From a virus, in the IMG/VR virus record IMGVR_UViG_3300042731_004976, positions 1-64,000 of that record: DNA of 64,000 nucleotides; one strand, 5' to 3'. Made by a program: the position numbers and the translations under genes. The notes beneath the pieces are model-generated. The model was given only the letters and a program-made list of their open reading frames with translations. It was not told where the DNA came from and ran no database searches. The stretch's first letter is position 1. Every line of letters begins with the position of its first letter. Of the stretch, positions 30,181 through 59,861 are shown piece by piece.

Positions 30181-31689
30181 ATGGGAACGGAAGCACGGCA
30201 GATTCTCAACGAGGATGCCAAGCGTACGGTAGCCGACAAGAGCTACGTTGGTGCGTTGGTTCGCAAGTGGGGTGAGTTCCTCGAAGGGATGCCCGACCGA
30301 ACCGATCAGGATCGCTACACGCTCGGCGTGACTGCGGTTCTGATGGAGAACGAGTCTCAGTACCTCCAGGGGCTGAACGAGGAGACGCGGACGGTCAACG
30401 TCGGCAGCTTCACGAAGTTCATCTTCCCGGTGCTGCGTCGAGTTTTCCCGAACCTCATCGCCAACGAGATCGTCTCGGTTCAGCCGATGACAGCTCCGGT
30501 CGGTGCGGTCTTCTTCCTCGACTACATCTACGGAACGACGAAGGGTCAGACGACGCAGGGGAACATCTTCCCCCGCGACTTCGATCGGGACTACTCGTCC
30601 GAGTTCATCAATGGTGAGCCTCTCGCCACGGGTGACGGCACCAACTTCGGTGGTGGTGGCGCTGCTCTCGGTGCGACGCTGGCCTTCCAGCCGGTGCGTC
30701 AGTTGGATGCAAGCCGCGGCTTCAGTGTCGTGGTTCGGGAGCTGGCTTCGGACGGTTCGACCGTTCAGGAAGCAACCGACGACGGGACGGGTGGTTTCAC
30801 CTTCAGCCCGACGGGCGGCAGCGTTGCGGGTAACATCAACTACTCGAACGGTGCTCTGACGGCGTTCAAGTTCCAGAACGTTCCGGCGAGCGGAAACGCC
30901 ATCAAGGTCTACTACTTCTACGACGGGGAGCTGAACACCAGGGTTCCGCAGATCAACCTCGACGTGAAGAAGAGCCCTGTGGAGGCGGTGCCCCGTCGAC
31001 TCAAGGCTCTGTGGTCGGCCGAGGCGGCGGAAGACCTCCGTGCGTTCCACGGTGTGGATGCCGAGACCGAGATGGTCTCTGCCATCGCCCAGGAGATCGC
31101 GCTGGAGATCGACCGTGAGATCATTCAGGATCTCTTCGCAAACTCCACCAGCACCACGTCCACGTTCGACCGAGTCCCGCCCGCGGGCATCAACGAGCTG
31201 GACCACCTGCGTGCCCTCATCACGCAGATCAGCACGGTGTCGAACCTCATCCACAAGAAGACGCTGCGTGCGCCGGCCAACTGGATCGTCACCTCCCCCG
31301 AGGTGTCGGCTCTGCTGACCCAGCTCACGACCCACGGCGACTTCCGTCCTCTGTGGGTGTCCGGTGGCGAGAGCCCCTACGGCCCCGTGGACATGCCGCG
31401 TCCTCTGACGCAGCACGGTCAGTTCTCGATCTACAAGACGGGAACGCTGATGAACAAGTGGCTCGTGTACGAAGACCCGTTCTTCACGCGCGACCAGATG
31501 CTCATCGGCCTCAAGGGCGCGAGCTACCTCGACAGCGGGTTCGTGTGGGCTCCGTACATCCCGCTCCAGGTCACTCCGACGTTCCTCGATCCGAACGACT
31601 TCTCCTTCCGCAAGGGTCTCCGTACCCGTTACGCGAAGAAGATGCTTCGGCCCGAGTTCTACGGAAGCCTGCGCATCCTGAACCTCTGA
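30181..31689 (+). CDS. major capsid protein (T4 gp23-like)
   Basis: RRVFPNLIA, VQPMTAPVG, RRLKALWS, EIDREII, APYIPL, TRYA. Confidence 0.95.
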   Translation: MGTEARQILNEDAKRTVADKSYVGALVRKWGEFLEGMPDRTDQDRYTLGVTAVLMENESQYLQGLNEETRTVNVGSFTKFIFPVLRRVFPNLIANEIVSVQPMTAPVGAVFFLDYIYGTTKGQTTQGNIFPRDFDRDYSSEFINGEPLATGDGTNFGGGGAALGATLAFQPVRQLDASRGFSVVVRELASDGSTVQEATDDGTGGFTFSPTGGSVAGNINYSNGALTAFKFQNVPASGNAIKVYYFYDGELNTRVPQINLDVKKSPVEAVPRRLKALWSAEAAEDLRAFHGVDAETEMVSAIAQEIALEIDREIIQDLFANSTSTTSTFDRVPPAGINELDHLRALITQISTVSNLIHKKTLRAPANWIVTSPEVSALLTQLTTHGDFRPLWVSGGESPYGPVDMPRPLTQHGQFSIYKTGTLMNKWLVYEDPFFTRDQMLIGLKGASYLDSGFVWAPYIPLQVTPTFLDPNDFSFRKGLRTRYAKKMLRPEFYGSLRILNL

Positions 31690-55287: not shown

Positions 55288-55785
55288 ATGCCGCAAGCTG
55301 GTTTCACAAGCGCTCCGGTTTTGACTCCCGAGGCGATCGATGAGGTCGAGATGTGGGCGCAAGCCGCCCTGGAAGACGATCCCGACGACGCTCTCGCGAA
55401 GATCTCCCTTGCTCTCGTTCAGGAGAACAGGGAGCTACGCATGTTTCTTCATAGAGATGCGGACGGTCAGCTATCGATCTTGCAGAAGGTTCAGCTTGAG
55501 AACGAGCGCTTGGAGAAGAAGCTGCGCGACCAGGAAGATATTATCGGGCGTCGATCCAAGGAACTTCGGGAGAAGAGCCAAGAGCTGAGCGGGTTGAAAC
55601 AGCGTTTGGATCGCTACACGAAGATCCTACACAAGGTAGAGGTCCTGTTGCACATCGCTCGAACGCGCATGGCGGATGACGGCAGCATCGACCACGGAGG
55701 TCCGGAAGAGATCGGACGCCTCATGGGGTTGGTGGAGAAAGAGTACGACAGAGTGGCAGAACAACAGCAAGGGCCTCAGGGATGA
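55288..55785 (+). CDS. coiled-coil protein
   Basis: Heptads; ATGA overlap with dcd. Confidence 0.6.
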   Translation: MPQAGFTSAPVLTPEAIDEVEMWAQAALEDDPDDALAKISLALVQENRELRMFLHRDADGQLSILQKVQLENERLEKKLRDQEDIIGRRSKELREKSQELSGLKQRLDRYTKILHKVEVLLHIARTRMADDGSIDHGGPEEIGRLMGLVEKEYDRVAEQQQGPQG

Positions 55786-56336
55786 TTCTATCAGACGGTG
55801 ACATCGAGACTCGCTTGGAGAGCGGAGACCTCGTCATACACCCCTTGATCAATTCCAAGTTACAGGTCCAACCAGCGAGTGTGGACCTTCGACTCGACAA
55901 GAACTTCATACGGGTGCGCAAGTCGCACGTTGGGGTGATTGACTTGGCCGATCCCGTTCAGGAGCTGGACCGCGTCACCACTGAAGACTCCTTCGTAATC
56001 GAGCCGTGGGAGTTCGTGCTCGCTTCTACTGCGGAAACGATTCGCATGCCCAACGATCTTGTGGGGCGTGTCGAGGGACGCAGTAGCTTAGGTCGCTTGG
56101 GTCTCATCATCCACGTCACCGCAGGTTTCGTGGACCCGGGATTCGAGGGACAGATCACATTGGAGATGACGAACTTCAATCCTTCGCCTCTTCGACTTCA
56201 CGTCGGTATGCGAGTCTGTCAGCTCTCGCTGGAGCAGATGACGAGCCCGGCCAAGCGCCCCTACGGAAAAGAACGAGGCAGCAAGTACATCGGAGAGGCT
56301 GCGGTGGGCGCAGTCCCCTCGCGGTACCGGCCCTGA
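55782..56336 (+). CDS. dcd: dCTP deaminase
   Basis: QPASVDLRL, GRSSLGRLG, AGFVDPGFEGQITLE, SKY. Confidence 0.95.
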   Translation: MILSDGDIETRLESGDLVIHPLINSKLQVQPASVDLRLDKNFIRVRKSHVGVIDLADPVQELDRVTTEDSFVIEPWEFVLASTAETIRMPNDLVGRVEGRSSLGRLGLIIHVTAGFVDPGFEGQITLEMTNFNPSPLRLHVGMRVCQLSLEQMTSPAKRPYGKERGSKYIGEAAVGAVPSRYRP

Positions 56337-56380: not shown

Positions 56381-57055
56381 GTGAGCCGGTTCTTTCTCGA
56401 CACTGAATTCATCGAAGACGGACAAACCATCGAGTTGATCTCCATCGGAGTCGTTTCGGACGATGGCCATGAGCTGTATCTCTGCAACAGCGATTGCGAT
56501 CTCTCGCGTTCCGGTGATTGGGTACGCGCTCATGTGTTGCCTCACCTGCCGGAGAAGAAGTGGGAGCTACGGAAAGATCCGTGGTTTTCGATGATGCGTC
56601 GTCACAAGGACGCTGGGCATTGCTACTACCTGTCATCACGCCAGTGTAGTCGGGCTCACCTAGTTCGGCCTGCCTACGGAGAAGCGGAGATAGTTCCAAA
56701 GCCTCTGCTGCCCTGGGCGACGAAGCTCGACTTGAGATCGCACTTGTGCGCCTTCATCCAGGAACACACCCCGAAGGGGAACCGTCCCGAGTTCTGGATG
56801 TACCACGGCGCCTACGACTGGGTTGTCGTCTGTCAGCTCTTCGGACGCATGATCGATCTCCCTAGCGGTTGGCCGCACCACTTCATGGACCTGAAGCAAT
56901 TCGCAGTCATGTCCGGAAACGAGCGCCTGATCGAGCAACCCATTCCGAAGCACCACGCCTTGCAGGATGCGCACTGGGTCCGGGACGCCTACCTCGATTG
57001 CTTGAAGCGTGATGCCCAGAAGATGCTCGACTGGGTGAGAATGCAGGAAGCGTGA
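56381..57055 (+). CDS. DEDDh 3'-5' exonuclease (Rv2179c/RNase AS-like)
   Basis: FLDTEF, LISIG, YDWV, HHALQDA. Confidence 0.85.
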   Translation: MSRFFLDTEFIEDGQTIELISIGVVSDDGHELYLCNSDCDLSRSGDWVRAHVLPHLPEKKWELRKDPWFSMMRRHKDAGHCYYLSSRQCSRAHLVRPAYGEAEIVPKPLLPWATKLDLRSHLCAFIQEHTPKGNRPEFWMYHGAYDWVVVCQLFGRMIDLPSGWPHHFMDLKQFAVMSGNERLIEQPIPKHHALQDAHWVRDAYLDCLKRDAQKMLDWVRMQEA

Positions 57056-57456
57056 TCGTCTACATTCGGCAATTTCGAATGGAGCAGTCAGCGATGTCTG
57101 CTTACAGTAGCTACATGGGTCCGGGCCCGGTCACGATAGAGATAGAGCTGGTGGCAGAGGGTTCGGAGGGCTACGAAGACCTGAAACACCACGGTCCCTT
57201 CATCTTGGAGCCCTTGAACAAGCATACCCAGAGACGCGAGGCGCCTCGTCCCGAGACACTCGCTCCGTCGAACGCTACGATGGCGAATCCGGAGATGCTC
57301 GCTGTCGATACTCCCTCGCCTACCGAGGCGCAGGCCGAAGCCGATCAAGAAAGGATGCATCGTATGACGACGCCATACGAAGAAGACTATCAATGGTCAG
57401 GATGTCCTGACTGCAACACCAAACCCTGCTGCTGTGCACTGCCGGATCTATTCTGA
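57052..57456 (+). CDS. hypothetical protein
   Basis: GTGA overlap. Confidence 0.55.
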   Translation: MIVYIRQFRMEQSAMSAYSSYMGPGPVTIEIELVAEGSEGYEDLKHHGPFILEPLNKHTQRREAPRPETLAPSNATMANPEMLAVDTPSPTEAQAEADQERMHRMTTPYEEDYQWSGCPDCNTKPCCCALPDLF

Positions 57457-57755
57457 TGGGCCTATTCGACTACATCGACATGTTGATGACTGAGGAACAG
57501 GCGCAGGAGTGCGCCAAGTCGGGTGTGATCTACACGCCGTACGTCCCTCTCCAGGTCTCCAAGGTCATGATCAAAACCACCGTCACCCTCCACCTCGAAG
57601 AGTGTGACTGTCCTGCGTGTTGTCCCTATCACGTAGCAGCACGCCGGCATCCGTACGGACCCGGGCAGGTACTCTCAGTCTCCCTAGCCGATGGCGAATC
57701 TCCTCCAAAGGGCTGGAAACGGGTACCAAAAGATCCGAACAGTTCTCTTCCTTGA
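57456..57755 (+). CDS. small protein carrying an MCP-like peptide
   Basis: TGATG coupling; SGVIYTPYVPLQVS. Confidence 0.6.
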   Translation: MGLFDYIDMLMTEEQAQECAKSGVIYTPYVPLQVSKVMIKTTVTLHLEECDCPACCPYHVAARRHPYGPGQVLSVSLADGESPPKGWKRVPKDPNSSLP

Positions 57756-57789: not shown

Positions 57790-58731
57790 ATGAATGAAGA
57801 GACCCTCCGCGACCGTCGACTTGGGACCATTCTCGCCGGAGCTATCGGCGATGCCCTCGGACACCCGACCGAGTTCATGTCCCTGTCCTCGATCTACGAG
57901 AAGTACGGGGTGGATGGCGTTCAGGGCTTCTCTCTCTGGCGGAAGGACCCCGAGACGGGCAAGGAGTACTCCCCCTACACCGACGACACCCAGATGGCGG
58001 AGGTGGTCCTCCGAACCATCCTGAGTGCCCAGTTGGCCGACTTGGACGAGGAGCACATGTTCGAGAAGATGGCTGAGGGCTTCGTGGAGTGGGCCAGAAA
58101 CCCCCAGGGAGGCCACAGAGCGCCCGGAGGAGCCTGTATGAGCGGTTGCCGGGCCCTGGGCAGCGGAGTGCCCTGGAGAGAGGCTGGAGGCCCCTCTGCG
58201 GGCGGCTGTGGGTCGGTCATGCGCTGCTACCCCTTTGGGCTCTTCTTCGAGCCGGACGAGGCGGAGAGGCTGGCCGTGGCGCACTCGGCCATGACCCATC
58301 GGGACCCCATCGCGCTGGCTGCCTGTGCCGCCATGGCGAGGGGGGTGGCCCTCAACCTGAGGGACGTCCCCGTGGACGAGGTCATCCAGGAGATGATCGC
58401 TGCTGCGGCGCGTTATAGCGAGCAGACGGCTGAGATGATGACGGATGCTTGGGAGCAGGCCAAGGCCGGGACTCACGCGGACGTGGTGCTCTCTCGGTAC
58501 GAGGGCTGGGCAGCCCATGATGCCATCGCTGCGACGGTCTACCTGTTCGCCTGCTTCCCCGAGGATCCCAAGGGAGCCATGCTCCGCGGCGTGACCAGCA
58601 AGGGGGACTCCGACTCCCTGGGAACGCTTGCTGGGGCCATCGTGGCCTCGCGTACGGGGCTCAAGTCCCTTCCCGAGGACTTGGTCCGAGACGTCGAGCG
58701 CTCGGAGGTCTTCCTGAGCATTCTCGACTGA
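57790..58731 (+). CDS. ADP-ribosylglycohydrolase (DraG/ARH family)
   Basis: AIGDALG..EF, YTDDTQM, G.G.VMR, TH, GDSDS. Confidence 0.93.
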   Translation: MNEETLRDRRLGTILAGAIGDALGHPTEFMSLSSIYEKYGVDGVQGFSLWRKDPETGKEYSPYTDDTQMAEVVLRTILSAQLADLDEEHMFEKMAEGFVEWARNPQGGHRAPGGACMSGCRALGSGVPWREAGGPSAGGCGSVMRCYPFGLFFEPDEAERLAVAHSAMTHRDPIALAACAAMARGVALNLRDVPVDEVIQEMIAAAARYSEQTAEMMTDAWEQAKAGTHADVVLSRYEGWAAHDAIAATVYLFACFPEDPKGAMLRGVTSKGDSDSLGTLAGAIVASRTGLKSLPEDLVRDVERSEVFLSILD

Positions 58732-59023: not shown

Positions 59024-59262
59024 TGACCGTTCCGAAAGTCGCTGACTACTTCCTCGTAGGAACACTCGACGAGCAATTCGTCGTGAACGCCCCGTCGCTT
59101 TCTGGGAAGCGAGAGAAGCTCGACTTTACCTGGCACGCGAGTCTCGCTTGGCACTTTCTGGATCGGCGACAGGCGGACGGGTTCATTCGAGATCATCCAG
59201 AACACAAGCTCGTACGATACCTATACGAGACTTGCACTTCCTTCGATGGATACCCCCGATGA
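59023..59262 (+). CDS. hypothetical protein
   Basis: TGATG coupling, GGAGG SD. Confidence 0.55.
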   Translation: MTVPKVADYFLVGTLDEQFVVNAPSLSGKREKLDFTWHASLAWHFLDRRQADGFIRDHPEHKLVRYLYETCTSFDGYPR

Positions 59263-59861
59263 AGCTCGACGACGTGAACCTTCTCCAGTTCGGAAACACG
59301 GTGCAACTCGTGGGGGCGATCTGGCAGGGCGAGGGCAAGACGTACCTCTGCATGTTCCCCGGCGAAGAGGTGCCTCGGGGCGAAGTTCGAGGAGTCGAGT
59401 TCCTCGACACAAGCCTCTTGGAAATGGATGCGGACGACTGGCAGCGCTTCCTTCGTCAGACCGACCTCATGGAGACCGAGGTGCTGGTCCAAGCAAAGGA
59501 CGGCACCACGACGAAGGCTATCCTTCGAAAGAGCGCTAGGCAGATCGATCAGGTCGTGTCATGGCGTGTGTTTCGTAGAGACGACTACACCTGTCGCTAC
59601 TGCGGCAAGGATGACGCGCCTCTGACTGTGGACCACCTCGTGCTTTGGGAAGAGGGCGGACCGAGCACCGAAGAGAACATGATCGCTGCGTGCAAGAAGT
59701 GCAATCGCAAGCGAGGCAACAAGCAGCTCGCGGAGTGGTTGACAGATCCCTACTTCCTTCGGATCAGTGAAGGGCTTTCAGCTTCTCAGCGGGGAGCACT
59801 ACACGCGCTCGTACCGAAGCTCGATTCTATCCCTCGCATGAAGCACAAGAGGTCTCGGTGA
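59259..59861 (+). CDS. HNH endonuclease
   Basis: RDDYTCRYCG..TVDH..GG..N..ACKKCN. Confidence 0.88.
   Translation: MKLDDVNLLQFGNTVQLVGAIWQGEGKTYLCMFPGEEVPRGEVRGVEFLDTSLLEMDADDWQRFLRQTDLMETEVLVQAKDGTTTKAILRKSARQIDQVVSWRVFRRDDYTCRYCGKDDAPLTVDHLVLWEEGGPSTEENMIAACKKCNRKRGNKQLAEWLTDPYFLRISEGLSASQRGALHALVPKLDSIPRMKHKRSR

Follow-up and report, generated by a model that had tools for sequence, protein, structure and literature searches.

The gene described here encodes a 99-amino-acid (99-aa) protein and lies within a window of 64,000 nucleotides, the first 64 kb of one 167,992-bp phage contig (IMG/VR record IMGVR_UViG_3300042731_004976; 58.4% GC; CheckV completeness about 80%) in which a T4-type major capsid protein (MCP) is present. 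The protein consists of an N-terminal module of about 40 residues followed by a zinc-binding module, and sequence comparison indicates that the N-module is descended from, or at least specifically copies, the C-terminal β-strand segment of Gp23, the T4-type MCP. It belongs to a family that is new, rare, modular, derived from Gp23 and without a described counterpart. Joining a capsid fragment to a zinc-binding module in an accessory gene of a T4-like phage is a rare, undescribed gene design; it defines a new small protein module and is a further sign that parts of the capsid gene are reused in this phage lineage. The features on which the comparison rests are the following (positions in the window).

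30181..31689, plus strand: T4-type MCP, 502 aa (Pfam Gp23, E 1.9e-71; T4 gp23 structures in PDB, E 1e-26)
31492..31518, plus strand: MCP strand aa 438-446 (D-Q-M-L-I-G-L-K-G), low-confidence co-linear counterpart of the F-D-Y-I..G-F segment of the N-module
31534..31575, plus strand: MCP counterpart strand, aa 452-465 (S-G-F-V-W-A-P-Y-I-P-L-Q-V-T)
57456..57755, plus strand: open reading frame (ORF) of the 99-aa protein (P0001 in the family numbering), N-module plus Zn-knuckle C-module
57456..57575, plus strand: N-module, aa 1-40, with the F-D-Y-I segment, an acidic helix and the MCP-like strand
57519..57560, plus strand: MCP-like strand, aa 22-35 (S-G-V-I-Y-T-P-Y-V-P-L-Q-V-S)
57585..57728, plus strand: C-module, aa 44-91, with a Zn-knuckle (H46, C50, C52, C55/C56, H59) and a Y-G-P-G-Q ... 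G-W-K-R-V-P tail

A first-pass annotation of this DNA had pointed to a capsid peptide inside the small protein, and residues 22-35 are indeed identical to MCP residues 452-465 at 8 of 14 positions. In a BLASTP comparison of the two proteins the match scores 26.2 bits (E 2e-4), and when the 99-aa protein is compared with every ORF of 40 aa or more in the 168-kb genome (1529 in all), its best non-self match is the MCP (E 0.049). Taken alone, this single-pair match is marginal. The 20/24 DNA identity between the cores of the two motif copies is uninformative, since shared codon bias explains it. A match so short (14-18 aa) could reflect a chance or convergent likeness of a short hydrophobic, proline-rich strand without any link to the capsid protein, and consistent with this, no match in PDB is obtained with the family profile, not even to T4 gp23; with the 99-aa protein as query, PDB returns nanobody noise only.

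Profile-level statistics argue against such a coincidence. When the genome is searched in six frames with the Pfam Gp23 hidden Markov model (HMM), the MCP and one other match only are found, the latter at 57513-57581 (E 0.019), and for the relatives P0003 (E 0.0028), P0136 and P0134, too, the top or sole weak Pfam match is Gp23, which thus recurs in four family members. A profile built from six family sequences and run in six frames against ten related IMG/VR records has all its matches within the MCP gene in every one of the ten (E values for a single genome from 2e-5 to 7e-4). Profile-profile comparison of the family with Gp23 using hhalign gives E 5.4e-6; when ten family segments are compared with eleven diverse Gp23 proteins, among them T4 gp23, a cyanophage gp24 and the MCPs of Flavobacterium, Microcystis, Rhizobium and Listeria phages, the result is Prob 95.7, E 8.6e-9 and a score of 51.2. 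Shuffling the columns of the family alignment 200 times yields a mean score of 12.0 (standard deviation 2.2, maximum 20.2), which speaks against a composition artefact. Because the Gp23 HMM, the family profile, hhalign and the column shuffles agree, the capsid resemblance lies well above chance, and the earlier proposal that the peptide is capsid-related proves robust at the level of profiles. Together with the second co-linear segment described below, these results make a chance likeness very improbable.

The similarity is confined to a small part of the capsid protein. The 99-aa protein carries the C-terminal Gp23 strand signature G-x-x-[YW]-x-P-Y-x-[PA]-L but does not reach the gathering cut-off of Pfam PF07068 (24.4 bits), scoring 12.8 bits (E 0.079) over profile positions 313-335 only, and the best family member, P0003, also stays below it at 17.5 bits; the scores of the family thus run from 12.8 to 17.5 bits. 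The protein thus carries a fragment of a capsid protein and is not itself one. Another sub-threshold Pfam match, to PF01702 (E 0.0044, aa 18-77 on profile positions 260-319; genome-wide E 0.0016), raised the idea that the gene is what is left of a tRNA-guanine transglycosylase (TGT/DpdA-like) gene, the surviving parts being the C-x-C-x-x-C Zn site and the strand before it. That match stems from C-x-C-x-x-C and scores 16.6 bits, under the 26.3-bit gathering score. It is seen in P0001 only and is absent in 9 relatives, including P0003, P0008, P0010 and P0012; moreover, the N-module occurs without the P0001-type Zn module and the genome contains no TGT gene. With a match below threshold and none in other family members, we rejected this hardly credible origin.

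In the capsid protein itself, few parts of Gp23 proteins are as highly conserved as the copied strand. The form [SA]-G-[YF]-x-[WF]-A-P-Y-[IV]-P-L-Q-[VI]-[TS] is found in 120/120 of the closest MCPs, and when IMG/VR is scanned with G-x-x-[FY]-x-P-Y-x-P-L-Q, the first 120 matches listed are all MCP-sized or contig-end-cut frames, G-L-F-Y-C-P-Y-V-P-L-Q-M being the commonest form among the matches listed. The pattern is a pan-T4-like MCP signature. The equivalent segment of T4 gp23 is 446-456, with P452-Y-V-A455-L456 (checked on NC_000866; HMMER alignment to the mature chain plus 65 residues). This segment, which contains A455, lies in the P-domain sheet that governs folding and intercapsomer contacts in T4 (PMC9546572), and A455V alone removes the need for the gp31 co-chaperonin (Fang et al., PMC9546572), which marks the copied strand as a determinant of chaperonin-dependent folding. 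For the place of the strand in the structure we relied on solved T4 gp23, aligned with HMMER, and on the literature; an AlphaFold2 (AF2) model of the MCP with 38 close relatives, at a pLDDT of 47, was too poor to be used.

The sequences flanking the peptide had been called unrelated to the capsid protein. This needs qualification: in relatives, the N-terminal F-D-Y-I..G-F segment is co-linear with the preceding MCP strand, and the flanks are therefore not wholly unrelated. That MCP strand reads D-Y-I-V-L-G-Y-K-G in Rhizobium phage RHph_I1_18 and D-Y-F-T-V-G-Y-K-G in T4, and in the family members L008p, P0009 and P0134 it is matched co-linearly by the segment that precedes the helix (D-F-I-F-D-G-F-K-G; F-D-Y-I-Q-D-G-F). 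BLASTP matches of these three proteins against a set of four MCPs have E values of 2e-6 to 4e-4; for L008p, 46-79 aa align with MCP C-termini (E 2e-6 to 1e-5), and several MCPs are among its weak top matches in a tblastn search of 50,697 phage genomes. Greedy hhalign extends the alignment to 35 co-linear columns and places D5 on MCP D438, an extension of low confidence. The N-module can accordingly be read as two consecutive MCP strands whose connecting loop has been replaced by an acidic helix: D-Y-x-x-x-G-Y-K-G, the loop (the acidic helix in the module), and then G-x-x-Y-x-P-Y-V-P-L-Q-V-[ST]. Because the second co-linear strand match occurs in several members, descent from the MCP is favoured over convergence.

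Set beside T4 gp23 (PF07068; PDB 5VF3, 7VS5 and 8T9R), the N-module reproduces the C-terminal strand pair (T4 432-440 and 446-456) and the near-universal T4-like MCP signature G-x-x-Y-x-P-Y-V-P-L-Q. It differs in covering about 35 of about 500 residues, in lacking the HK97 fold, in having an acidic helix in place of the loop, and in its fusion to a Zn module. C-terminal fragments of MCPs do arise as genes, as is evident from stand-alone fragment genes in two related GC-rich phages (L061 1636-2238 and L208). Such a gene, on a 62% GC phage fragment, encodes only the C-terminal ~80-100 residues of a Gp23-type MCP, its strand being intact (G-F-V-Y-A-P-Y-V-P-L-Q-V-T-K; Gp23 HMM, E 2.7e-4). The genome studied here also carries three mini-MCP paralogues (L066-L068, 191-246 aa; genome positions 94664-95239, 143112-143852 and 119450-120028), two of which begin with R-R leaders resembling twin-arginine translocation (Tat) signals; hhalign against the MCP clade gives E 5.8e-6. 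Like the 99-aa gene, and like L061 and L208, they are small P-domain-derived genes outside the structural block. In contrast to it, they retain both C-terminal strands and the spine helix, their copy of the strand has diverged, and they have no Zn modules. Descent of the 99-aa family from these mini-MCPs was considered and dropped, there being no detectable similarity between the two (hhalign E 0.54).

Homologues of the 99-aa protein are few. An exhaustive HMM search of 1.84 billion representatives recovered 11 family proteins, a word-based search of 5.8 billion clusters 10, and pattern scans of IMG/VR and JGI metagenomes a few more; so few members in such large searches indicate that the family is rare. 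The DNA-pattern scan of metagenomes returned mostly chance frames and four relevant loci, while a scan by protein pattern yielded no match through its tblastn filter. No entry for the N-module was found in Pfam, PHROG or PDB. Against the 50,697 phage genomes, tblastn with P0001 and P0006 gave nothing useful, and with P0136 only weak Felixounavirus matches outside the module. Carriers range from 30 to 62% GC, and the long contigs among them derive from large or jumbo phages that they cover in part (151-208 kb, 35-49% completeness).

The family N-module (~40 aa) reads [ST]-L-F-D-[YH]-I, an acidic helix of variable length, and G-x-x-[YF]-x-P-Y-[VIT]-P-L-Q-[VI]-[ST]-[KR]. Invariant in a six-member alignment are P28, Y29, P31, L32, Q33, F4, D5 and I7; with ten members P-Y-x-P-L-Q is kept throughout, while F4-D5-I7 is lost in L008p. 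All homologues examined thus keep the motif, whose loss had been named beforehand as a result that would count against the capsid link. About 12 small phage proteins contain the module, at either terminus and nearly always with a Zn-binding module; at least 6 architectures are seen. It stands alone in P0006 (64 aa) and in P0013 (50 aa), whose gene has a separate Zn-ribbon gene after it. It precedes an H-C-C-C knuckle in P0001 and P0003, which share one architecture, a C4 ribbon in P0002 and a helical domain in L008 9962-10282, and is N-terminal in P0135 as well. It follows Zn ribbons in P0134 and L220, and another domain in P0009 and P0136. Two further Cys/His-rich small proteins (L060; L198/L226) carry the strand alone. 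Two of the family's C-modules are likewise found by themselves (P0008, P0010, P0004 and P0007), the P0001-type C-module being stand-alone in P0008 and P0010 and N-terminal in P0012. The N-module is therefore a portable unit that occurs at either end of unrelated small proteins, nearly always with a Zn-binding module.

Some minor observations concern these loci. In L055 and L058 the gene sits among many small ORFs without assigned family; in L055 an ADP-ribosylglycohydrolase (ARH) gene and a Cpn10 gene each lie 8 kb away, the former upstream and the latter downstream, a distance too large and a case too isolated to count as linkage. Overlapping the end of P0006, L005 762-1418 encodes a 218-aa protein in which Y-R-G and S-T-S motifs like those of R-S-E ADP-ribosyltransferases are seen by eye, with no family in Pfam, and the upstream ORF (L005 1-582) has a zinc motif of the DnaJ type, C-x-x-C-x-G-x-G, at its start. 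In P0002, P0007 and P0011 the ribbons read C-x-x-C-G-G, P0002 having a weak Pfam match to DnaJ_CXXCXGXG (E 0.061). Four contigs of 47-57% GC (L199, L212, L230 and L233) contain a frame with L-P-Y-V-P-L-Q-V-T-K in a Pro/Ser/Thr-rich context, which is probably an antisense frame of a conserved gene.

The 99-aa ORF is a real gene under purifying selection. This follows from its coding-type GC content by codon position (.60/.45/.64), which agrees with that of the neighbouring genes, unlike other frames, from a dN/dS of about 0.2 (dN 0.31, dS 1.35) against the P0003 gene, to which it is 62% identical, and from its overlap with the upstream gene. For the motif part, dN is.069 and dS.32. In line with the coupling proposed in the first-pass annotation, the stop codon of the upstream 134-aa ORF and the ATG share the sequence TGATG. 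No Shine-Dalgarno sequence precedes the ATG, and this absence, together with the overlap, makes translational coupling plausible; the homologues P0003, P0006 and P0134 are instead preceded by GAGG-type sites. The gene is part of a tightly packed cluster, all on the plus strand, in the order dcd, exonuclease, 134-aa ORF, 99-aa ORF, ARH and a 93-aa ORF.

55782-56336, plus strand: dCTP deaminase gene (dcd)
56381-57055, plus strand: Rv2179c-like/DEDDh exonuclease
57052..57456, plus strand: coupled 134-aa ORF upstream of the 99-aa ORF (C-terminal knuckle C-x2-C-x5-C-x-C)
57454..57458, plus strand: TGATG stop/start overlap (upstream TGA 57454-57456, ATG 57456-58)
57790..58731, plus strand: ARH (Pfam PF03747, 1e-59), also a neighbour in L001 and L002

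The cluster is non-structural and contains nucleotide-metabolism genes, and the distance of 26 kb to the capsid gene reported earlier measures 25.8 kb. The order dcd, exonuclease, small ORF, 99-aa gene, ARH is kept in one relative (L001), where the 134-aa ORF is syntenic with a 104-aa homologue (1730-2044; BLASTP E 2e-10). These two proteins are alike only at the N-terminus and in the C-terminal knuckle W-S-G-C-P-D-C-x3-P-C-x-C, and the 134-aa ORF is the second small Zn protein of the cassette. ARH does lie directly downstream of the 99-aa ORF, as had been noted; as evidence for function this adjacency is weak, since it is not conserved in other family members. A six-frame profile search did not find the 99-aa gene in 10 phage records with 69-88% identical MCPs, the exonuclease is missing from the five of those ten that were searched for it, and in G004 an unrelated 245-aa ORF comes after dcd; the cassette is therefore accessory. 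PADLOC has no matches at the locus, and a promoter and terminator scan gave nothing above shuffled expectation. At 59148-59861 (plus strand), 1.4 kb downstream of the 99-aa gene, an ORF has an HNH-type endonuclease signature (C-R-Y-C-G ... D-H-L ... C-K-K-C-N).

Capsid proteins are common triggers of bacterial immunity, as in CapRel, CmdTAC, Thoeris and Lit. To our knowledge, it is largely open how phages cope with capsid sensing other than by mutating an essential gene. The explanation that we tentatively favour, giving it somewhat less than even weight, is that the N-module mimics the nascent MCP strand and engages a chaperone or a chaperone-like capsid sensor. The strand would be displayed as an exposed, aromatic linear ligand and would occupy the site on a factor that normally grips the same strand of new, unfolded MCP; candidate factors are a chaperone of the GroEL/co-chaperonin type or a chaperone-like host immunity sensor such as the SecB-like chaperones of toxin-antitoxin-chaperone (TAC) systems. 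As one outcome, the 99-aa protein might blunt or pre-empt capsid-triggered abortive infection; as another, the stability or activity of the Zn domain might be tied to the onset of capsid synthesis, in the manner of a tag or timer like the ChAD elements discussed below.

The N-module behaves like a tag, since it does not depend on position, is attached to a variety of small Zn domains and contains a contiguous invariant run identical to the MCP consensus. Its invariant residues are contiguous rather than alternating, and the mini-MCP paralogues let the same strand drift. Published cases provide precedents. Newly made T4 Gp23 is bound by CmdC, a SecB-like TAC chaperone (PMC11618068). HigC grips strands of lambda gpV through aromatic short linear motifs with an acidic patch between them, and the same HigC pockets hold the portable ChAD tag of the antitoxin (10.1101/2024.02.24.581848). 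A 29-aa gp23 peptide is sufficient for Lit (PMC3014915), and DSAD1, according to its abstract, competes for a site that overlaps that of the tail-tube trigger and thereby blocks DSR2 (PMC11087589).

Several points weigh against a strand mimic. The functional reading as mimic or decoy, already put forward in the first-pass annotation, is putative, with no binding partner identified. Sensors that are activated by displacement, such as the TAC chaperones, should be triggered and not inhibited by an MCP mimic. No SecB-like, GroES-like (Cpn10) or toxin-antitoxin gene was found beside the 99-aa gene, and its expression timing is inferred from neighbours only, no promoter having been found. Three other carriers (G001, G012 and G014) have no Gp23 or T4-portal matches, but are fragments of 19-49% completeness. 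The AF2 model of the 99-aa protein is poor (pLDDT 57.8, predicted TM-score 0.28) and shows the motif as coil, which speaks neither for nor against a linear-ligand state; an ESM Atlas model has a pLDDT of 0.49, is without usable neighbours and is equally uninformative.

A more far-reaching version of the mimic explanation is doubtful. According to it, large phages have repeatedly reused the most conserved, chaperone-dependent strand of their own MCP as a portable tag on small Zn proteins, a tag that engages chaperonins or immune chaperones of the SecB-like kind. If so, a phage would for the first time be seen to employ a copy of the very part of it that triggers immunity, either to blind capsid-sensing abortive infection or as a timer that switches off non-structural, possibly early, proteins once capsid synthesis starts. 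A portable copy of the most constrained capsid strand also offers a cheap candidate probe for the recognition of Gp23 by chaperones and sensors and for whether phages exploit that recognition, and may bear on how cells or chaperones recognise newly made capsid protein.

The constant company of Zn ribbons and knuckles, which are typical of small phage host-takeover proteins, is also what one would expect if the strand were an exapted relic, that is, a capsid fragment captured in the distant past whose present role is purely structural, within a small Zn-binding protein that is itself non-structural and has a job unrelated to capsids (e.g. binding nucleic acid, RNA polymerase or another host target). 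We consider this possible, if on the unlikely side. It agrees with the location of the gene in a nucleotide-metabolism cluster, the lack of similarity to the other mini-MCPs of the genome, and the absence of a linked capsid or chaperone gene. A strand with a structural role only would, however, be expected to drift from the MCP consensus, as it did in the mini-MCP paralogues, whereas P-Y-x-P-L-Q-V-[ST]-K is contiguous, invariant and identical to that consensus across phages of 30-62% GC, and the module is joined at either terminus to quite different partner domains.

The place of the original strand in the P-domain sheet that governs T4 folding and intercapsomer contacts (PMC9546572), and the action of the module as a portable handle, would equally suit a capsid-binding factor. 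Here the strand would pair with the MCP, by β-augmentation or P-domain strand exchange, as an assembly or folding helper or inhibitor, or as an anchor for Zn-domain head cargo. We regard this as decidedly unlikely: relatives with 69-88% identical MCPs do without the gene, which is hence not needed for assembly, and the gene lies outside the structural block. T4 capsid-targeting leaders differ too: they are short, N-terminal and end in a conserved (L/I)-x-E site for the prohead protease, whereas the module is often C-terminal (P0009, P0134 and P0136) and has no such conserved site after it, the L47-E48-E49 of P0001 being absent from P0003.

Returning to the proposed mimicry of the nascent strand, three known systems invite comparison. 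With the ChAD elements of TAC systems, for whose chaperone site a phage structural protein competes, the N-module shares the character of a portable, graftable tag and extended strand, with aromatic residues and an acidic patch between them; its aromatic segments D-Y-I and I-Y-T-P-Y lie ~20 residues apart around the acidic helix. In contrast, ChADs are carried by antitoxins beside a SecB-like gene and have their aromatic motifs ~30 aa apart, while the neighbours of the 99-aa gene (dcd, exonuclease, 134-aa ORF, ARH and 93-aa ORF) include no toxin, antitoxin or chaperone gene. The resemblance may serve as a lead only. DSAD1, an accessory protein of a phage, competes with the structural trigger of a sensor and so blocks that sensor, which is the closest known mode to a decoy (PMC11087589); its abstract does not describe a derivation from the tail tube protein, whereas the putative competitor here would be a copy of part of the trigger.

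The Gol peptide of Lit / EF-Tu exclusion is, like the strand discussed here, a short conserved gp23 peptide, and is recognised on its own (PMC3014915). It differs in lying in the first quarter of gp23 and in acting as a trigger within the MCP, whereas the motif of the 99-aa protein is C-terminal and carried by a separate gene. Elsewhere in the genome, at 105577-105903 (plus strand; L070), a 108-aa ORF contains I-K-R-E-P-M-K-V-P-T-G-G-L-F-Y-L-D-Y-K-Y, which is identical at 9/20 positions to MCP aa 98-117, a conserved region whose T4 counterpart overlaps with the end of Gol. In BLASTP comparisons, this ORF matches the MCP with E 3e-5 for the pair and E 0.047 against all ORFs of the genome.

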